Source of the DNA: Promethearchaeota archaeon
GTDB taxonomy: Archaea; Asgardarchaeota; Lokiarchaeia; Sigyniarchaeales; Promethearchaeaceae
NCBI GenBank assembly: GCA_016933055.1
Contig: JAFGBS010000004.1
Location: 330,001-362,000, forward strand
Direction: 5' to 3'
DNA: 32,000 bases
Below are positions 763 to 18,452 of this stretch, one piece after another (position 1 is the stretch's first letter; every line of letters starts with the position of its first letter). The notes beneath the pieces are model-generated. The model did not search any database and had not been told where the DNA came from. It was given only the letters and a program-made list of their open reading frames with translations. Position numbers and translations under genes: made by a program.

Positions 763-2658
763 TTACCTATGAAACTCTTTCTCGAGATATGACCAACTGA
801 AAAATAACATGGTAGGTCGACCATGAGCGCAATGATGGGGATTTTCGCACAGTGATAAGGTTATGAGTAATTTTTTTGCAAATTCCGGATCTGAAATCAT
901 ATCTCCTCCTCTAATGCTCTCATGACACGCAATATATTTAAGGATCTTCTCAACCGATTGACTAAAAGATGTTTGTTTTCCCATTTCAATAATTTCTAAG
1001 CAAATGTCTGTAAGAATAGCTGTATCTTGTACTTCTTTCAAGATGGTAGGAATTGTATGTAAAGTAAAGGTGGTACCTCCTAGATGGTTCACTTCAAATC
1101 CAAACTTTGCAACCTCAGAAATCGTATCGAGCAAGTATTCTTTCATATTTATCGGAACTTCAATAGTAAAGGGAATTATTAAACGCTGTCTATGCATTCC
1201 TCCTTTTAAATACGCCTTCATCTCTTTTTCATAATTGATCCTTTCATCTGCTGCGTGCATATCTAAGATATAAAATCCTTCCTCCCCTTCAAAGACAAAA
1301 TATACATTCTTTAATTGTCCTGATTCGCTTATTAACCGCATCTTCGGAAAAGATTTTGTTTGTATCCATTCATTGCGTAGAAAATAATGGGATTGTTTGG
1401 AAATAAGATTTGGAGCAAAGGTTTGCAACGGAAGAGCTTTAGTTTTATGAGGAGTAGCTATCTGAGCTTCAGAGGACACCCTCTCTTGGGATTGTGACGT
1501 AAATTTAGAACTTGATTGAACTAATGGGCTTTGAGCAGATGTAGATAGATTATTCTTTAGATGATTTTCCGATGGAGATTTTTCTTCAATCCATGTTTCA
1601 ATTGTTTTACTGGAGGAAGAAATAGATTGGTCTAGTTGACTGGTAATTGTAGACTGTCCAAATTTTTGATTGACCACTGAGCGCGTTACCTCGCTTAATG
1701 CACTTAATATCGTTTCTTCTTCTTCGAATCTGACAATTTTCTTGGTGGGATGAATATTGAAATCTACCTTGGAGGGATCTATGGTCAAAAATAGGACATA
1801 AAATGGATGTTTATGGATCATTATATAGCTTTTATAAGCAAATTTCATCGCTTCATGGACGGTGGGAGAAATAACGTACCGGCCATTGATAAACACCGTA
1901 GTATTATGAGATGTGGATTGTGCTAAGGTGGGATCCCCAATATACCCTTCGATGGTGAATAAATTGTGCGATTCTCTAAAAAATACGCTATTTTTTGCGA
2001 AATCTTTACCATAGACATCAAAAATGGCATTAACCGGATCTGATGAGCTAGGAGAAGATAAAATTGGAGTAGAATCCTGCATTAATTTGAAATTAATCTC
2101 CGGATACCCAAGAATATATCGAGATACAATATCTGTGATGTGCCCCATTTCAACACGATCGGATTTCAGGAATTTATATCGTACAGGAGTATTAAAGAAT
2201 AAATCTCTGACCTTGATATTGGTTCCTAAGGCTGCTGCAGTTTGTGTACATGATTTCACGACTCCGCCCACCAATTCAATTTTAATCCCATGTGAGCTCG
2301 AGCGGGTTTTGGTAATCAATTCCGTTTTTGATATTGAACAAATTGAGTAGAGAGCTTCTCCTCTAAATCCAAGTGATTTTAATGTAACTAACTCATCTGC
2401 TGATCGTATTTTATTAGAAGTATGAGGTAAAAAGGCTATTTCAACATCTTCGGGATGAATACCAACTCCATCGTCAATGACCTGGATAAGAGATTTTCCA
2501 AAATTCTGAATATTTATAGTTATTTTCTTTGCTCCCGCATCAATGCTATTTTCAATCAATTCTTTTACTACCGATGCAGGGCGTTCAATAACTTCCCCGG
2601 CAGCAATTTTCTGGTAATCTTGAATCTCCTTAATTCTCCGAAGAGGTGAAGACACCAT
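763..2658 (-). CDS. mutL: DNA mismatch repair protein MutL with C-terminal endonuclease domain
   Basis: Has IAAGEVIERPASVVKELIENSIDAGA, DDGVGI and SLGFRGEAL (GHKL ATPase), plus endonuclease motifs DMHAADERINYE, ACH and CAHGRP. Confidence 0.97.
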   Translation of the reverse strand: MVSSPLRRIKEIQDYQKIAAGEVIERPASVVKELIENSIDAGAKKITINIQNFGKSLIQVIDDGVGIHPEDVEIAFLPHTSNKIRSADELVTLKSLGFRGEALYSICSISKTELITKTRSSSHGIKIELVGGVVKSCTQTAAALGTNIKVRDLFFNTPVRYKFLKSDRVEMGHITDIVSRYILGYPEINFKLMQDSTPILSSPSSSDPVNAIFDVYGKDFAKNSVFFRESHNLFTIEGYIGDPTLAQSTSHNTTVFINGRYVISPTVHEAMKFAYKSYIMIHKHPFYVLFLTIDPSKVDFNIHPTKKIVRFEEEETILSALSEVTRSVVNQKFGQSTITSQLDQSISSSSKTIETWIEEKSPSENHLKNNLSTSAQSPLVQSSSKFTSQSQERVSSEAQIATPHKTKALPLQTFAPNLISKQSHYFLRNEWIQTKSFPKMRLISESGQLKNVYFVFEGEEGFYILDMHAADERINYEKEMKAYLKGGMHRQRLIIPFTIEVPINMKEYLLDTISEVAKFGFEVNHLGGTTFTLHTIPTILKEVQDTAILTDICLEIIEMGKQTSFSQSVEKILKYIACHESIRGGDMISDPEFAKKLLITLSLCENPHHCAHGRPTMLFFSWSYLEKEFHR

Positions 2659-2770: not shown

Positions 2771-3493
2771 ATGATAACCGCACTTCTGTTTGATATGGGA
2801 AATACCTTAATTGATTTTCATCGAGGTCCTTCGGATGCAGAAAAATACGAAATAGGATTACGTAATATGGAACCTCTTCTAAAAAAATATAATCGCAAAA
2901 TTACCTTTGATGTGTTAAACCAGGAGTTTTTACCCATATTAGAAGAAGTATTCGTTCGTAGACTGTCATTAGACCATGAAATTTCTATCAATGAATACTT
3001 AGATCCTTTTCTAACCAAGCATAATATTAAAATGCGGGATAATCAAAAAATCTCATTGCTGGAGCAATTTTATTCAGGTTTTACTAAATATGTATGGGTA
3101 GATCCCCATATTCCGGAAACTTTTCAACAAATACGTAGGAATGGTATTAAAATAGCAGTAATTTCGAACGCATGGTTACCCAAGGAAGTTTATATACGTA
3201 TTTTTAAGAAATTAGGTCTACATCAATGGATCAATGGCTATTATTTTAGTTATACGGTAGGTGCAAGCAAACCAAATCTGAAGATATTCCAATATGCTCT
3301 TAGCACCTTACGGATACACCCATCTACTACTTGGATGATCGGAGATAACATAGAAAAAGACTTAGAACCAGCAAAGACTTTGGGATTAACTACCGTATGG
3401 TTCAATTCAAAGGGATTTTCACTCCCAAAAGATAAAAAAAATACAGTTGATTATCAAATACGCAACATTCATGATATTCTCACTATCCTATGA
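2771..3493 (+). CDS. HAD-superfamily hydrolase, subfamily IA
   Basis: Motif I LLFDMGNTL, motif II ISN, motif III KP, motif IV IGDNIEKD. Confidence 0.9.
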   Translation: MITALLFDMGNTLIDFHRGPSDAEKYEIGLRNMEPLLKKYNRKITFDVLNQEFLPILEEVFVRRLSLDHEISINEYLDPFLTKHNIKMRDNQKISLLEQFYSGFTKYVWVDPHIPETFQQIRRNGIKIAVISNAWLPKEVYIRIFKKLGLHQWINGYYFSYTVGASKPNLKIFQYALSTLRIHPSTTWMIGDNIEKDLEPAKTLGLTTVWFNSKGFSLPKDKKNTVDYQIRNIHDILTIL

Positions 3494-3761: not shown

Positions 3762-4994
3762 ATGACGGAAACAACTCAAGAGCCGCTTAATAATACAGAA
3801 ATGAAGCGGAAGAAAAAGAAAAGCTTTCCAATCTCCTCAAAAGTTAATCTAGCACGATATACTAAGTCAGAAGGTATTTATCCCTATTTCATACCCTTGT
3901 CCACGGCAGTCGGTCCTCGAGTAGTGATGAATAATCGACAAACGATTATGTTGGGGTCTAATAATTATCTTGGTCTGGCAAATCATCCAGAGATGATTAA
4001 AGCTGCAATAAAAGCTATTCAAACATACGGAACTGGTTGTACAGGTTCCCGCTTTCTCAATGGAACTCTAGATTTGCATGTAAAACTCGAGAAAGAACTT
4101 GCAGCATTTATGGGGAAGGAGGGTGCCATTTGTTTTTCAACAGGTATGCAAGCCAATCTCGGAGTCATATCTGGAATCACCAGTAAAAATGATCTAATAA
4201 TTAGTGATGAAAAAAATCACGGGTCCATTATTGATGCATGTCGTTTATCCTATGCAAACACCGTGGTTTACAATCATGACAATATGGAATCCTTGGAACG
4301 GTGTTTAAGAGCAACGCCTAAGTCAAAATCGAAGTGGATTATATCAGATGGGGTCTTTTCTATGGAAGGAAGTCTTGCACAAATTGATGTAATTGTGGAA
4401 TTAGCAGAAAAATATGATGCGCGAGTAATTATTGATGATGCTCATGGGGTGGGACACATGGGTCATCATGGTGAAGGTTCTGTGGGACACTTTAATCTTA
4501 TGGATAAAGTGGATTTAGTTGTCGGGACATTTTCAAAATCATTTGCATCTATAGGAGGATTTGTTGTAGGGGATAGAGAGCTTATCGAACATTTATCCCA
4601 TCATGCGAGATCCCTAATCTTCAGTGCTGCTATCCCGCCTTCTGCAGCAGCAATTGCGTTGAAAGCTCTTGAAATTTTTTATACCGCAGATGATCTACGA
4701 ACTCAATTAAGGAAAAACACGGCTAGGTTCCGAAAGGGCGTAGAAATTTCGGGATTCCACACTATTTCCGGAATAACTCCCGTGGTTCCCATTATCATTG
4801 GTGATGTAATGAAAATGCTTCGATTTAATCGAGATCTCCTCGATGCAGGAGTATATGTAAATCCAGTTGTCCCTCCAGCCGTCCCCAAAGCTACGGTAAG
4901 GACAAGTCTAATGGCGACTCATACCGAAGAGGATTTGGATGAAGCCGTACAGATATTAGAGTATGTTGCAAAAAAGAATCGAATATTAAAATAA
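3762..4994 (+). CDS. PLP-dependent alpha-oxoamine synthase, serine palmitoyltransferase-like
   Basis: Motifs GIYPYF, GSNNYLGL, YGTGCTGSRFLNGTLDLH, DGVFSMEG, DDAHG, PLP-Lys motif GTFSKS and C-terminal VNPVVPPAVP...RTSLMATH. These match bacterial (Bacteroidota-type) SPTs better than BioF or Kbl, which usually have GKA at the PLP lysine. Confidence 0.85.
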   Translation: MTETTQEPLNNTEMKRKKKKSFPISSKVNLARYTKSEGIYPYFIPLSTAVGPRVVMNNRQTIMLGSNNYLGLANHPEMIKAAIKAIQTYGTGCTGSRFLNGTLDLHVKLEKELAAFMGKEGAICFSTGMQANLGVISGITSKNDLIISDEKNHGSIIDACRLSYANTVVYNHDNMESLERCLRATPKSKSKWIISDGVFSMEGSLAQIDVIVELAEKYDARVIIDDAHGVGHMGHHGEGSVGHFNLMDKVDLVVGTFSKSFASIGGFVVGDRELIEHLSHHARSLIFSAAIPPSAAAIALKALEIFYTADDLRTQLRKNTARFRKGVEISGFHTISGITPVVPIIIGDVMKMLRFNRDLLDAGVYVNPVVPPAVPKATVRTSLMATHTEEDLDEAVQILEYVAKKNRILK

Positions 4995-5123: not shown

Positions 5124-7853
5124 ATGACTTCCGATTGGAAACAACTCGATCAAAATGAATTACCCGAGATGTTAAAACACTGGTTACAAATCAAACAACA
5201 GTATCCAAACTATATCTTGGCATATCGAGTTGGAGATTTTCTGGAATTTATGTATGATGATGCAAAGAAAGTTTCCAGTAAAATCGGATTGACTCTAACC
5301 AAAAGAGGCTCGGAACCTAATCGATATGCACTTGCTGGTATTCCCTATAAAGCGAAACATCAATTAAAACATTTAATCAAACAAGGTGAAACCGTTGTCA
5401 TTGTGGATCATCTGGAGGATGCAAGTGAAGCAAGAGATCATAAACGACTTGTTAAGCGCGGAGTAACCCAGATTCTTTCTCCTGGGACCGTGATTGATGA
5501 TGAACTTTTAGAAGCAAATACAAACAATTATCTAACCGCAATATGCAAGTTAAAAGATATATTTGGGATTGCGTTTATTGATATTTCCAGTGGAGATTTC
5601 TTTTGTACGGAATTTGCGGGAAATAACGGATTGGATGATTTATACTCATTTATCAGCAGATTTGAACCCGTAGAGGCCATTTTACCCAAAGCTATCATAA
5701 GAAATGCTGAATTTACCACCCAACTACAGGATCTATGTAATTTATCCATCAAGGAATTCGATCATTTTGCTTTTCAATATGACAATGCTTCGAAAGCATT
5801 GTTATCGCATTTCCAAACGCAGTCCTTGGAAGGATTCGGGATTTATGGGACTGATGCAGCCATCTGCTCTGCTGGAGCTCTTTTATCATTCTTGAATGAG
5901 ACACAGAAAACGGTATTACCTAATATTACTAAAATCTCTCCCTATATCCAAAAAGAAATCATGCATTTAGATTCCGCTACACAGCGCAATCTTGAGATTT
6001 TACGTTCATTACGTGATGGTACAACCCATGGAACACTGATTTCAGTCATAAACCGTACAAACACTCCCATGGGAAACCGTATGATGAGAAAATTTATTGT
6101 ACAGCCGTTGTTGTCCAAGGAGAAAATTGAAGCACGGTTGGATGTTGTTGAGGTGTTCAAAAAAGATACAATTTTGCGGAACGATGTTCGGGAACTGTTA
6201 TCCCAAATAGGGGATATTGAACGAACCATATCGCGAATCAATTATATCAGAACGGCGAATGCTCGGAACTTAATTAATTTAAAGGATGCTCTGATTGTGT
6301 TACCTTCTATCACCCATATTCTCGGTGGAATTGATTCCAAACCCCTCAAATCTTTAATGAACTTTAATGATTATACTACTCAAATTCAATTAATTGAATC
6401 GGCGATCATCGAGGAACCTCCTACCACTGTTACAGAAGGAAACATCATCCGTCCTGGTTTTGATTCTCGCGTGGATGAACTTCGAACCATTTTGAAAAGC
6501 GGAAAAGAATGGATTGTAACCTATGAAAATAAATTAAAAGAGACTTTAGGAGCTTCCGTGGGAATAAAAATTGGATTTAATCGGATATTGGGATATTATA
6601 TTCAAATAACGGATAATGCAGCAAAATCCATCCAAATCCCCCCTAGCTTCCAAAAACGGGCAACATTGAAAGGTTCGACTCGATATGAGACCCAAGAGCT
6701 CAAAGATATCGAAATCAAAATTCTCAATGCAGAAGAGACCATCCAAGATGTAGAATATGAGTTATTTTGCACTATAAGGGAAGAAATTGCATCCGGAACC
6801 AAACAAATCCAAGAAGATTCTTATAAAATTGCGATGCTTGACATTTTATGTGGGCTAGGGGAGGTAGCGGCAGAGAATAACTACAATCGTCCTCTGATTA
6901 CTACCAATGATAAGATCATAATCGAACAAGGTAGGCATCCCGTTATAGAGCATGTAAACTTTACCGAAGCATTTATTCCGAATAATTGCTACATTGATTG
7001 TGATCAAGAACAAATTTTATTAATTACAGGACCGAACTGGTCCGGAAAATCTACCTATTTACGTCAAGTAGCGTTAATTACCATCTTAGCACAAATTGGG
7101 AGCTTTGTACCTGCAATTTCAGCAGAGATTGGCATAGTGGATCGAGTGTTCACCAGAGTAGGAGCCTCAGATGATCTAGTCCATGGTCAAAGCACTTTTC
7201 TTATGGAGATGAATGAAACCGCTCAGATACTCCATTATGCAACCCAACAAAGTCTAGTAATCATCGATGAATTAGGTAGGGGAACATCCACCAGTGATGG
7301 ACGTGCGATTGCACGGGCGGTTCTAGAAAGATTGCATGGAATGAGAGTGAAAACATTATTTTCTACTCATTTTCATGATCTCACTGAATTGAATCTGGAT
7401 CGAGTAAGTAACTACCATTTTTTAATCCGAGAGGAGGGAAACAATTTGGTGTTCTTGCGCCAATTAACCCCGGGAGGAACTGATAAATCCTATGGGATTC
7501 ATGTAGCTTCGATGGCAGGGATCCCAAAGCCAGTAATTAAACGTTCCTTTGAACTAGTGGAAACCAATTATGCGTGTAAGCAATCAGAGATAGGTGAAAA
7601 TGACAATCATGAGCATCTAACTCCCCTTTCAGAAGATATTCGATCATCGGATGGATCAAACAAACCTAAGAAAAAATCCGTGCAAACTATTCTTTTTCCC
7701 CTTGATCATACTATCATTGCGGAGGGAGATTATGCTGACGTAATTGAGGAACTGGAAAAGATCGATATTGATACTACCACGCCTTTATCAGCACTTGAAA
7801 AATTGTCAACGCTAAAGAAAAAAGTAAAAAAAATTCAAGAGGAGAAATCATAA
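5124..7853 (+). CDS. mutS: DNA mismatch repair protein MutS (MutS1 type, with mismatch-binding domain)
   Basis: AAGGAG SD. Motifs GDFLEF (Phe-x-Glu mismatch motif), TPMG-R, GRHPV, Walker A TGPNWSGKST, STFLMEM, DELGRGTS and SYGIHVA. Confidence 0.97.
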   Translation: MTSDWKQLDQNELPEMLKHWLQIKQQYPNYILAYRVGDFLEFMYDDAKKVSSKIGLTLTKRGSEPNRYALAGIPYKAKHQLKHLIKQGETVVIVDHLEDASEARDHKRLVKRGVTQILSPGTVIDDELLEANTNNYLTAICKLKDIFGIAFIDISSGDFFCTEFAGNNGLDDLYSFISRFEPVEAILPKAIIRNAEFTTQLQDLCNLSIKEFDHFAFQYDNASKALLSHFQTQSLEGFGIYGTDAAICSAGALLSFLNETQKTVLPNITKISPYIQKEIMHLDSATQRNLEILRSLRDGTTHGTLISVINRTNTPMGNRMMRKFIVQPLLSKEKIEARLDVVEVFKKDTILRNDVRELLSQIGDIERTISRINYIRTANARNLINLKDALIVLPSITHILGGIDSKPLKSLMNFNDYTTQIQLIESAIIEEPPTTVTEGNIIRPGFDSRVDELRTILKSGKEWIVTYENKLKETLGASVGIKIGFNRILGYYIQITDNAAKSIQIPPSFQKRATLKGSTRYETQELKDIEIKILNAEETIQDVEYELFCTIREEIASGTKQIQEDSYKIAMLDILCGLGEVAAENNYNRPLITTNDKIIIEQGRHPVIEHVNFTEAFIPNNCYIDCDQEQILLITGPNWSGKSTYLRQVALITILAQIGSFVPAISAEIGIVDRVFTRVGASDDLVHGQSTFLMEMNETAQILHYATQQSLVIIDELGRGTSTSDGRAIARAVLERLHGMRVKTLFSTHFHDLTELNLDRVSNYHFLIREEGNNLVFLRQLTPGGTDKSYGIHVASMAGIPKPVIKRSFELVETNYACKQSEIGENDNHEHLTPLSEDIRSSDGSNKPKKKSVQTILFPLDHTIIAEGDYADVIEELEKIDIDTTTPLSALEKLSTLKKKVKKIQEEKS

Positions 7854-15392: not shown

Positions 15393-16565
15393 ATGCGATT
15401 ATCCGCATACATATTTGCTAGCATACGGGAAAACCGTGGTAAATATTTAGTGAGTATATTGGGAATTATGGTTGCCATAGGTACATTTTTTACATTATCG
15501 TTATATTCAGCACAATTTGCCTCTTCATTCGATTCTTTTTATGGTCTCTATGAAAACACATTATTTGTTGTAGATGAAAATACTGAACTCTCTAAAATGG
15601 TCCCTGTCAACTCGAAGATAAATGAAAGTTATGCGGAAGAAATCGAAAATTTACCAGGTGTTTTCATCACTGTTAAAGTGTTATTTGCTGATTTAAGTAA
15701 TTATACAGTTACTCAATTTGTGCCAGATCGAATTTATGCATTCGAAATGGGGGATATAAATTTCATATCCCAATATATCGGGTTAGATTATGGAACTTGG
15801 CCTGAGTCCCCTGATGAGATTGTTGTAGGGCAATATACATTTGATCAAGAACATGATGAAACTTCAATTGGAACACAAGTGGATATCAAGGGCACTAACT
15901 TTTATATCAGTGGAGTATTAGATTTTAACAGCCATCTTTACAATCATTTCATTTATATGGATTATTCAGCTGCTCAAACAGCCTTATCCATGGAAGGAAT
16001 ATGCTCTTTGATATATGTGGTCTATAATGAAAATACAAATCCAATGCAATTAAAAACGTCGATACAAGATAGTTATCCAGTTATTGCTTTAAATATGAAT
16101 GATTTAAATGCAAACCTTGGTGGTATTTACAATGCGATTGAAATGGGAGAATTCGTCATCGGACTGTTACCATTGCTTATCAGTTCCATTTTCTTTTTTG
16201 TCTTAATTACCTACATCGTTAGAACCCGAACTAGGGAATATGCCCTTTTGAAAACAATAGGATTTTCCGAGGTGCAACTTATCACGTTTTTATTTGTTGA
16301 AGTAATGGTTATTTCGGTTATCGGTTATCTCTTGGGATCATTAGTAGGATATTTCTTCTATACACTGAGTTTTCAGTTTGTAACAAGTCGACCTTTAAGT
16401 TTGGCATTCGATTCTTGGGATTTTTATTGGACAAGTATTTTGGTCACTGTAAAATATAACTTCTGGACCATGTTTGCACTACTATGTGGTTTGAATTTGA
16501 TATCCACAACGTTTCCCGCTTTAAGTATACGTCGTAAAAGTATTGTGGAAGTAATACGAACATAG
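15393..16565 (+). CDS. MacB/FtsX/LolCE-family ABC transporter permease 1
   Basis: TM1, large extracytoplasmic domain, then TM2-4; signature RTREYALLKTIGFS...FVE. Confidence 0.9.
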   Translation: MRLSAYIFASIRENRGKYLVSILGIMVAIGTFFTLSLYSAQFASSFDSFYGLYENTLFVVDENTELSKMVPVNSKINESYAEEIENLPGVFITVKVLFADLSNYTVTQFVPDRIYAFEMGDINFISQYIGLDYGTWPESPDEIVVGQYTFDQEHDETSIGTQVDIKGTNFYISGVLDFNSHLYNHFIYMDYSAAQTALSMEGICSLIYVVYNENTNPMQLKTSIQDSYPVIALNMNDLNANLGGIYNAIEMGEFVIGLLPLLISSIFFFVLITYIVRTRTREYALLKTIGFSEVQLITFLFVEVMVISVIGYLLGSLVGYFFYTLSFQFVTSRPLSLAFDSWDFYWTSILVTVKYNFWTMFALLCGLNLISTTFPALSIRRKSIVEVIRT

Positions 16566-16578
16566 AGAGGAATTTACT

Positions 16579-17754
16579 ATGAATATGCGCCATTATATCA
16601 GAGCAAATTTCAAGGATAAACGATTTCGTAATATTTTATGTATTTTGGGAATCATGGTTGGGTTGATTTTATTTATAGTCGTAAATTTTTTCTCCCTTTC
16701 CTATGAATCCCTGATTATCAAGGCATTTTCCCCCATACAAAATTATAACCAAATTGTTCAACGTGGTACCTCCTTTTCTCGAATGCTACCCTATTATAGT
16801 TATATCAATGAATCTGTGTATGATGAAATGGAGCTAAATCCTGATTTTGCTTCAGCGGATATCTACCCTACTGCATTGAAACGGATAACCGATTATAGTG
16901 AAGACAAATATCTGGATAAAAATATAGTATTTGGCATTCCCAATGGAAAGATGGGGAGTTTTTTCTCCAGTTTAAGCATTGCTGAGGGAACTTGGGTACA
17001 AAATGAAACTCAAGTTGTAATTGGGTATGATCTTAATCATCAATATGGATTCACTGTAGGAGACCTTCTGGTCCTAGAAGGGAAGAATTATACGATCTCG
17101 GGAGTCCTAGAAGAAGAAACGTCATTGTTTGATTGGTTTATATTTATGGATCTACATGAATTTCAAATCCAATATAGTATGGAAGATCAACTAACATCAA
17201 TTTTTATTACCTATGAAAGATCTTCTGAATCATATTTCGAGTCAGAAGTTGAATCAACTTATCTCGACTTAGAATTTCTGACAATCGATGAAATGAATAA
17301 AATTACGGGTAATCTGCTTAGTAGAACAGAAAAAACATCGATTGTATTCATGCTTTTAACATTTTTCTGCTCTACCTTGTTTACTACCTCGATAGTTTTC
17401 CTGAATGTACATGATAGGAAAAAGGAAATTGCTACGTTGCGTTCAATTGGTGCCCCTCAAAAGGACATTTTCAAGCTAATTTATGGGGAGGTTTTCATAA
17501 TAGCAATAATTGCCCTTTTGGCGGTACCTGTCGGAATACTTCTTTACACTTATTTGACCTTTAAAACCATGAATATTACGGGATATTTAGCAATGACCTT
17601 ACCACAAGCATTCCGTCTCACAATCATTAAAATAACCTGGGAAAATTCACTACTTCTCATTTCAATGCATTTTGGAAGCAGTTTTATCATGGCGGGAATT
17701 CCTTATTACCTTGTAATGAAAAATGATATCCAATCTGAAATTCGGGGGGGGTAA
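16579..17754 (+). CDS. MacB/FtsX/LolCE-family ABC transporter permease 2
   Basis: Same topology; signature RKKEIATLRSIGAPQKDIFKLIYGE. Confidence 0.9.
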   Translation: MNMRHYIRANFKDKRFRNILCILGIMVGLILFIVVNFFSLSYESLIIKAFSPIQNYNQIVQRGTSFSRMLPYYSYINESVYDEMELNPDFASADIYPTALKRITDYSEDKYLDKNIVFGIPNGKMGSFFSSLSIAEGTWVQNETQVVIGYDLNHQYGFTVGDLLVLEGKNYTISGVLEEETSLFDWFIFMDLHEFQIQYSMEDQLTSIFITYERSSESYFESEVESTYLDLEFLTIDEMNKITGNLLSRTEKTSIVFMLLTFFCSTLFTTSIVFLNVHDRKKEIATLRSIGAPQKDIFKLIYGEVFIIAIIALLAVPVGILLYTYLTFKTMNITGYLAMTLPQAFRLTIIKITWENSLLLISMHFGSSFIMAGIPYYLVMKNDIQSEIRGG

Positions 17755-17759
17755 TCAAG

Positions 17760-18452
17760 ATGACTAAAGAAGAAATTATAGTTACCATTAATGATTTATG
17801 GAAAAGTTACAAATTAGACAAAATTCATCATGATGTATTAAAAGGAGTAAACCTAGAGGTACAAAAAGGGAAATTTGTCCTAATTATGGGTCCTTCTGGT
17901 TCTGGTAAAACTACTTTACTAAACATAATTGGATTAATAGACGCGTACGATAAAGGTTCGTATCATCTTGGATCAATTGATACAACATCTCTAACTCCGA
18001 AGGAAATGCGTCGAATTCGTCTTGAAAAGATTGGATTCATATTCCAAACCTTCAATCTCGTTGCATCCCTAACTGCACAACAAAATGTGGAATTACCCCT
18101 ATCATTAAAGAAGGTTCCTCAAGATGAACAACATACTCGATCGGAAGAGTTGTTGAAATTGGTAGGTTTGTATCATCGACTGAAGAATAAACCCCGGCAG
18201 TTAAGTTCGGGAGAACAAAATCGAGTCGCAATCGCCCGTTCTCTAATAATTGAACCCACAATTATTGTAGCTGATGAGCCAACGGGTAATCTAGATAGGA
18301 AAAATACCGAAACAATTATGGAACTATTGACTAAAGTACAAAAACAGAAAAACGTAACTCTGATATGCACCTCTCATAACATAAAACTTTCCGAATATGC
18401 AGACATAACGTACAAATTAGAGGATGGAATAATTAAAGAAGGATCATACTAA
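17760..18452 (+). CDS. ABC ATPase, LolD/MacB/FtsE-like
   Basis: Walker [11 protein letters not shown]-loop [10 protein letters not shown], signature [13 protein letters not shown], Walker B/D-loop [12 protein letters not shown]-loop TSHN. Confidence 0.95.

Follow-up and report, generated by a model that had tools for sequence, protein, structure and literature searches.

Introduction

Sphingolipids are regarded as lipids of eukaryotes and bacteria, and a bacterial ceramide pathway composed of Spt, bCerS and CerR was reportedly described by Stankeviciute and colleagues in 2022. The closest described enzyme to the one considered here is the serine palmitoyltransferase (SPT) of Sphingobacterium multivorum (SmSPT; Protein Data Bank entries 3A2B and 8GUH), for which the residues that contact pyridoxal phosphate (PLP) and L-Ser, and their numbering, are given by Ikushiro et al. 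(2023; PMC10196870). Ding et al. (2024; ISME J, PMC11334938) used co-localisation with bCerS and CerR as the criterion for an "Spt-like" sequence; the linkage is also missing in the Bacteroidota and Cloacimonadota that they named. Here we describe an Spt-like alpha-oxoamine synthase (AOS) gene within a 32,000-nucleotide stretch of DNA (the window) from the metagenome-assembled genome (MAG) of a Promethearchaeota archaeon. The window covers positions 330001-362000 of a 427-kb contig (C6), and the gene lies 334 kb into it. An earlier note, written from the letters of the window alone, had proposed that this is an SPT-like gene in an Asgard archaeon, and the source organism indeed shares its GTDB family with the cultured Ca. 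Lokiarchaeum ossiferum.

Results

The protein (P0001; Table 1) belongs to the Spt-like enzymes and is separate from glycine C-acetyltransferase (Kbl) and 8-amino-7-oxononanoate synthase (BioF), an assignment that is well supported since sequence, structure and phylogeny agree. The open reading frame (ORF) is not a chance one, because it matches Pfam Aminotran_1_2 (PF00155) at 6.4e-58 over residues 61-398 and SmSPT at 5e-110; the opposite strand is closed by many stops. The product is a full-length fold-type I PLP-dependent AOS. Its best NCBIfam model was SerpalmtaseCFB (NF047600, Bacteroidota-type SPT) with 471.5 bits, followed by gly_Cac_T_rel (Firmicutes-type Kbl; 402 bits), Kbl (392 bits) and BioF (388 bits), all scores lying under the curated cut-offs. 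SmSPT was also the best match in the Protein Data Bank (371 bits, 45-46% identity), ahead of a group at ~255-267 bits that comprised Kbl, BioF/Kbl and an alphaproteobacterial SPT (S. wittichii, 261 bits), and of cysteate acyltransferases (213-231 bits) and human SPTLC2 (196 bits). An AlphaFold2 (AF2) model with a predicted local distance difference test score (pLDDT) of 89 gave a template-modelling (TM) score of 0.93 to 8guh/3a2b; however, structural similarity is no guide to function here, as every AOS scored 0.87-0.93.

Each motif from which the earlier note had read the gene as SPT rather than BioF or Kbl was found in the ORF (Table 1), and the reasoning behind them held when we compared 80 aligned rows (the 79 rows of our largest careful tree plus E. 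coli BioF), 75 of them Spt-like. YPYF, GSR[FLY]LNGT, GTFSKS[FL] and [LY]MATH were common to the Spt-like rows; E. coli Kbl (GTLGKAL, SVRFICGT), E. coli BioF (VTFGKGF) and the Loki Kbl-like paralogue (GSMSKGF) had none of them. SmSPT residue n corresponds to residue n+15 of the archaeal protein, ungapped until the PAVP loop. The SmSPT contacts that are kept are His138 (H153), Lys244 (K259), Thr241 (T256), Ser243 (S258), Ser185 (S200), Asn52 (N67), Gly80/Ser81 (G95/S96), Phe83/Leu84 (F98/L99) and Phe272 (F287), and Tyr25, Tyr27 and Phe28 are conserved as well; the sole exception is Met271, a main-chain substrate contact, which is replaced by Ile286. The catalytic set K259, H153, D225, H228 and R380 aligns to the SmSPT residues and is invariant in our alignment A1, with Arg380 aligned to an Arg in all references. 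We take D225 to be the Asp to the pyridine nitrogen, H228 the second His and R380 the carboxylate Arg, which presumably binds the carboxylate as in the SPT of S. paucimobilis. The usual HAS motif reads HGS in only 2 of the 75 Spt-like rows, namely the window protein and an 82%-identical relative. Since the other Asgard copies all read HAS, and the Kbl-like Loki paralogues read HGS, Gly154 looks like a tolerated local substitution with no sign of the shift in substrate choice that had been suggested for it.

Phylogenies were inferred from 117 rows (quick) and from 66 and 79 rows (careful; LG+C20 with posterior mean site frequencies, PMSF), with E. coli Kbl, E. coli BioF and three Loki Kbl-like paralogues as outgroups and no alphaproteobacterial or eukaryotic SPT included. 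A grouping with Kbl or BioF was looked for and not seen: the Spt-like clade stood apart from the outgroups with support of 99* in the 117-row tree, where E. coli BioF also fell outside it, and of 100/99 in the 66- and 79-row trees. The window protein falls in a long-form subclade (100/100) whose members are extended at the N-terminus and lack two residues after PPAVP, the deletion occurring only in these Asgard copies and in bacterial copies nested among them. This subclade lies within a larger Asgard clade that also contains short-form copies of 394-396 aa from the same family (f1), some genomes of which carry both forms, as well as a Kariarchaeaceae-labelled protein and members of families f15, f13 and f18 and of one f3 genus. 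The catalytic residues are invariant across the Asgard copies. At E<=1e-125 the gene was present in 41 of 400 Asgard genomes from five families: 10 of 14 in f1 (the source genome counted), 16 of 31 in f13, 3 of 12 in f15, 10 of 12 in f18 and 2 of 135 in f3. Orthologues occur in three single-contig Asgard assemblies, including that of L. ossiferum, whose protein (P0013) is 61% identical.

The last common node of the Asgard rows in the 79-row tree (98/91) comprises 35 Asgard and ten nested bacterial rows. The latter include Syntrophaceae- and Smithellaceae-labelled proteins from contigs that also encode DprA, topoisomerase I, OmpA and Amidase_3. Their branching point is inside the long-form clade, after that of L. 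ossiferum (100/98), and forcing the Asgard rows to be monophyletic cost 86 log-likelihood units (approximately unbiased test, p=0.0005; the group was defined after the tree had been seen). Because they are nested inside the Asgard clade, these nearest bacterial sequences are probably recipients of an archaeon-to-bacterium transfer and not donors. The earlier note had thought a horizontal gain from sediment bacteria the likeliest origin; since the clade is Asgard-wide and spans five families, a recent gain of that kind is not supported, and the gene is best explained as one of long standing in an Asgard-specific Spt-like clade, passed on vertically. The bacterial lineages around the clade form an unresolved comb, and an ancient bacterial origin for all of it is possible. 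The nesting of the Syntrophaceae and Smithellaceae copies is a rare, well-supported candidate for Asgard-to-bacteria transfer, the presumed recipients being of a kind that lives with Asgards. The bacterial Spt-like genes nested in the long-form clade also include L110 and L111. On the Smithellaceae-like contigs (L019, L020, L021 and L112) the divergent flank of the gene encodes a 545-609-aa protein with no Pfam match, an AMP-binding enzyme and a radical-SAM protein.

To describe the bacterial relatives, we scanned one genome per GTDB species and clustered the ORFs neighbouring the loci returned. Results showed 80 loci, one from a Promethearchaeota MAG (73% identity) and 79 from bacteria of ~20 phyla (44-51% identity). 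A ~378-aa protein is encoded at 35 loci, at 34 of them on the same strand 3' of the synthase with a median gap of 10 nt. It carries a weak GNAT signature only (13 of 16 members match PF00583) and appears to fit the description of the bacterial ceramide synthase, so that we term it bCerS-like. A CerR-like gene of the NAD-dependent epimerase family was present at 31 loci, and an adh_short short-chain dehydrogenase/reductase (SDR), whose second-best NCBIfam model is KdsR, at 19 loci, almost all of Bacillota. Our trees place the Asgard clade among these bCerS/CerR-linked bacterial sequences.

The public gene call (P0002, 397 aa) begins at the second in-frame ATG (Met14, position 3801). We favour Met1 (position 3762), since the N-terminus MTETT... 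is kept in the 82%-identical relative (alignment A1). The N-terminal extension is found neither in SmSPT nor in the short-form Asgard copies, and its residues 1-17 are predicted to be disordered (AF2 model, pLDDT <50); one might speculate that it has a role in membrane association. Upstream of the gene, TTATATAAA might be its own archaeal promoter, a tentative reading since the spacer is AT-rich, and together with T-runs 3' of the stop codon it would be compatible with an independent archaeal transcription unit.

Besides the genes in Table 1, the surroundings include a cyclophilin-like gene, an MFS transporter and an esterase and, at a greater distance, a MacB-type ABC exporter, a pyruvate:ferredoxin oxidoreductase cluster, Rio2 and thymidylate kinase. 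As the earlier note had remarked, no biotin gene is nearby: neither a lipid nor a biotin gene is among those flanking the Spt-like gene in the window, and tblastn with E. coli BioB gave no match at 1e-5 anywhere in the source genome. The order mutL, HAD, Spt-like gene, mutS recurs only on contigs of the 82% relative, where it occurs together with FEN1/XPG-family, CDC48 and histone genes on independent contigs of 123-128 kb from two other samples, whereas in L. ossiferum the orthologue has an FKBP-like gene on one side and a Mem_trans gene on the other. Synteny is thus only genus-deep and, as no neighbours are conserved past genus level in family f1, the gene is a solitary one there. The two-domain gene at 162-749 of the window, with a histone fold followed by an EF-1beta-type guanine-nucleotide-exchange (GNE) domain, was also seen on a related contig (L017, 6420-6935).

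Table 1. Features of the Spt-like gene, its product and surroundings, and candidate partner genes (window positions unless a contig or locus is named).
Feature	Location	Strand	Remarks
Spt-like AOS gene (P0001)	3762..4994	+	ATG-to-TAA ORF, 410 codons / 410 aa
TATA-box-like element TTATATAAA	3716..3724	+	38-46 nt 5' of ATG; read from sequence
Lys-rich N-terminal extension, residues 1-26	3762..3839	+	Alignment A1; alignment to 8guh begins at residue 27
GIYPYF	Residues 38-43
GTGCTGSRFLNGTLDLH	Residues 90-106
NHGS	Residues 152-155
His153-Gly154-Ser155	4218..4226	+	PLP-stacking, carboxylate-anchoring His, then Gly for the usual Ala
GTFSKS	Residues 255-260		Lys259 at nt 4536-4538
Thr256-Phe-Ser258-Lys259	4527..4538	+	PLP Schiff-base lysine motif; invariant in A1
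PPAVP loop through Arg380	4872..4901	+	PPAVP then VRTSLMATH, residues 371-387
Histone fold (residues 34-91) and EF-1beta-type GNE domain (residues 109-195), one ORF	162-749	+
mutL	763-2658	-	Full-length, bacterial-type
HAD hydrolase	2771-3493	+
mutS	5124-7853	+	Full-length, bacterial-type
MacB-type exporter	15393-18452	+	Two MacB_PCD/FtsX permease genes, then ABC ATPase; 394-aa no-Pfam ORF before
Candidate reductases, SDR paralogues of source genome	C17:774857; C16:74904; C31:6159		PRK06179/KdsR-like, subfamily of Spt-linked Bacillota SDRs
SDRs of family f13	L142 5028-5858; L144 7355-8197; L145 5105-5926		Co-oriented, 108-128 nt 5' of Spt-like gene
SDR of family f18	L138 4787-5797		Divergently adjacent to Spt-like gene
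206-aa GNAT of family f18	L137 7425-8045; L148 4684-5304		Adjoins Spt-like gene in two other genomes

Discussion

Judged by homology, the protein is probably, though by no means surely, a soluble homodimeric Spt-like synthase that would convert serine and a long-chain acyl-CoA into a 3-keto long-chain base. As in SmSPT, Lys259 would hold PLP as the internal aldimine and would be displaced by L-serine, anchored via His153, with Asn67, Gly95/Ser96 and Ser258 forming a hydrogen-bond network around the serine hydroxyl and carboxylate. A long-chain acyl-CoA would then bind, and Claisen condensation with decarboxylation would yield a 3-ketosphinganine-like product. Acyl-CoA supply in the host is plausible, since its 13 AMP-binding (acyl-CoA-synthetase-like) and 6 acyl-CoA dehydrogenase genes point to an active acyl-CoA metabolism. 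One of the three KdsR/PRK06179-like SDR paralogues in the source genome would probably reduce the 3-keto base to a sphinganine-like base. Within f1, 8 of the 9 other Spt-positive genomes have the paralogue at C17:774857, which was seen in 0 of 31 Spt-negative ones. In families f13 and f18, SDRs and GNATs adjoin the Spt-like gene itself; these SDRs score 233-282 bits on a hidden Markov model (HMM) of the Spt-linked Bacillota SDRs, compared with 229 bits for the best source-genome SDR, and it is possible that the adjacent SDRs and GNATs are the reductase and N-acyltransferase partners.

Several results weigh against this reading. The score on NF047600 is well below the cut-off for the SPT equivalog (471.5 vs 640 bits); however, bacterial sequences linked to bCerS or CerR also score below it (L038 572, L044 505 and L065 494 bits), so that the cut-off appears to mark the Bacteroidota equivalog, which is narrower than the functional clade. 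In the source genome (91% complete, contamination estimate 3.3%) the gene is neither linked to nor accompanied by bCerS and CerR, and between mutL/HAD and mutS it has no pathway neighbour. An HMM of the bacterial neighbour (35 proteins) retrieved from that genome only one weak GNAT (33.7 bits), and a 16-row profile (A2) retrieved no bCerS; over the source genome and 40 Loki relatives the A2 profile gave no orthologue, only partial matches of <=54 bits at positions ~44-183, alike in Spt-positive and Spt-negative genomes. The weak GNAT that the HMM retrieved, at C17:625287-626267, was considered as a diverged bCerS and rejected, its orthologues occurring mainly in Spt-negative genomes and in no other Spt-positive one. 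Searches of the source genome also found no TLC/Lag1 ceramide synthase domain and no acyl carrier protein (ACP; PF00550), and since ACP was not found the donor would be acyl-CoA and not acyl-ACP. Of the partners that the earlier note had looked to the genome for, three KdsR-like SDRs thus came to light, but no convincing bCerS, Lag1/TLC protein or ACP. The epimerase and SDR paralogues of the source genome are generic, and the SDR at C17:774857 was not kept as a dedicated 3-keto-base reductase beyond being one of the three candidates: it was not found in the Spt-positive genomes of f13, f15, f18 and f3, in one genus it has a sugar-utilisation context (MFS_2, DUF2961, LacZ), and its score with the KdsR model is only 156 of 400 bits. 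Gly154 and the loss of two residues from the mobile PAVP loop may also be counted as departures from SPT. Ding et al. (2024; PMC11334938) report no Black Sea archaeal MAG with an Spt-like protein, and no sphingolipids from archaea are reported in the archaeal lipid literature that we searched. Since the searches brought no N-acyltransferase to light, production of sphingolipid or ceramide by the organism is no more than a possibility.

Some further genes of the source genome were considered. GBA2 is the eukaryotic family of non-lysosomal glucosylceramidase, and an 800-aa protein of the GH116/GBA2 family (DUF608) is encoded at C17:63063-64142 (-). It was set aside as a glycosphingolipid link, its distribution among relatives being unrelated to that of Spt. 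The MFS transporters near Spt or SDR genes were likewise rejected as a shared exporter, as no BLAST similarity was seen between them. No SGPL1-type decarboxylase was found in the source-genome search, and DAGK_cat matches were marginal.

It is possible, if on the whole unlikely, that the enzyme is an Spt-like synthase with a changed substrate: in place of serine it could take Gly, Ala, Thr or some other amino acid, its acyl-CoA could be short, medium or branched, or both could apply. In that case it would make a non-membrane amino-ketone, such as a 1-deoxy-type base, a CAI-1-like signal or a secondary-metabolite precursor, and a ceramide synthase partner would therefore be missing. In keeping with this, bCerS, TLC/Lag1 and any conserved neighbour are absent from family f1, the gene is solitary in most of the Asgard genomes examined, and the long form has both its N-terminal extension and the deletion in what would be the substrate-closing loop. 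Moreover, known SPTs can use Ala and Gly, if inefficiently (PMC10196870), and AOS specificity can be neither switched nor read from first-shell residues alone (PMC13692747). Nevertheless, all L-Ser-contacting residues of SmSPT are kept and, since bCerS/CerR-linked Spt sequences bracket the clade, serine with long-chain acyl-CoA is the parsimonious ancestral activity; the SDR adjacency in two other Asgard families also fits reduction of a keto base.

Improbable, and largely refuted by the tree, is the alternative that the gene encodes a housekeeping Kbl for threonine breakdown or a BioF. Its homologues, including the L. ossiferum protein, are automatically annotated as "8-amino-7-oxononanoate synthase", it reaches 388-392 bits with the models for BioF and Kbl, and its contig has, at a distance of ~41 kb, a Tdh-like gene that is 29% identical to E. 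coli Tdh. Those scores nonetheless fall below the curated cut-offs of both (391.7 vs 460 bits for Kbl model NF005394 and 319 vs 493 for TIGR01822; 388.1 vs 426.45 for BioF), branches of 99-100% split the protein from E. coli Kbl, E. coli BioF and its own Kbl-like paralogue, the motif forms of Kbl and BioF are not present, and no BioB was found in the genome. A better Kbl candidate is that paralogue, a second AOS on contig C2 (174065-175162, -; L002/L106), which scores 453 bits on TIGR01825 and is 37% identical to the Spt-like protein. It adjoins a GH2 glycosidase and an epimerase gene, not tdh, and is far more widespread, being present in most Loki relatives, also those without the Spt-like gene.

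That bacterial DNA was mis-binned or mis-assembled into the archaeal MAG is scarcely credible in spite of the estimated contamination, the bacterial-type mutS and mutL on either side and nearest non-archaeal relatives that are bacteria from the same kind of habitat, given that the gene lies deep in a contig with an archaeal histone fold and a Rio2 kinase, that its gene order recurs in two other samples, that its G+C (0.40 vs 0.33-0.39 in the flanks) is unremarkable and that single-contig Asgard genomes carry orthologues.

A bolder combination of claims would be that the Asgard Spt-like clade makes sphingoid bases and is ancestral to the eukaryotic SPT (LCB1/LCB2), the first step having been inherited from the archaeal host, and that N-acylation in Asgards is carried out by an enzyme unrelated to bCerS and Lag1; we regard this as a long shot. 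In our literature search, no paper linked Asgard, Lokiarchaeota or Heimdallarchaeota with serine palmitoyltransferase. An Asgard signal for eukaryotic sphingolipid metabolism is described at the pathway level in a 2026 Nature paper, which does not name SPT, and a 2026 preprint reports Asgard sisters for GBA2, SGPL1 and SGPP1, SPT not being among them. That an Spt-like family is conserved and monophyletic across five Asgard families suggests that the archaea closest to eukaryotes may make amino lipids derived from acyl-CoA, and bears on how the archaeal host gained membrane chemistry of the bacterial or eukaryotic type. Since the cultured L. ossiferum has an orthologue, the sphingoid-base question is directly testable.

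Comparison with known systems

Like SmSPT, the archaeal protein is a soluble, single-chain AOS of ~400 aa. The two align at 45-46% identity over ~380 residues with one 2-residue gap and superpose with a root-mean-square deviation of 1.7-1.8 Å, and both have YPYF, GSRFLNGT, GTFSKS and SLMATH; the archaeal protein differs in its 26-residue Lys-rich extension, Gly154, Ile286 for Met271, the 2-residue deletion and the archaeal host. Kbl and BioF have the same fold-type I PLP scaffold and chemistry (32-35% identity for the E. coli enzymes, TM 0.87-0.91 for solved structures), yet they lie in a separate clade and have other substrate-loop and PLP-lysine motifs, and a tdh or bio gene context is lacking here. 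The cysteate fatty acyltransferases (SulA/CapB; 7U7H, 28EH) are also AOS of the SPT superfamily and form long-chain bases; however, the pocket here is SPT-type, with Ser96, Asn132 and Ala289 in place of their Ala82, their missing Asn (no Asn117 feature) and their trans-subunit Lys280. The eukaryotic SPT (SPTLC1/SPTLC2, LCB1/LCB2) has the same reaction class and fold, SPTLC2 being 29-30% identical by structure alignment, but it is a membrane-bound heterodimer with small subunits, and by pairwise score the archaeal protein is no closer to human SPTLC2 (196 bits) than to Kbl (255-267 bits). Unlike the bacterial Spt-bCerS-CerR pathway, neither the source genome nor the other Asgard genomes examined have a linked bCerS or CerR. 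The protein nevertheless resembles the "Spt-like" clade B of Ding et al. (2024; PMC11334938), in that it falls in the same well-supported clade as the bCerS/CerR-linked sequences.

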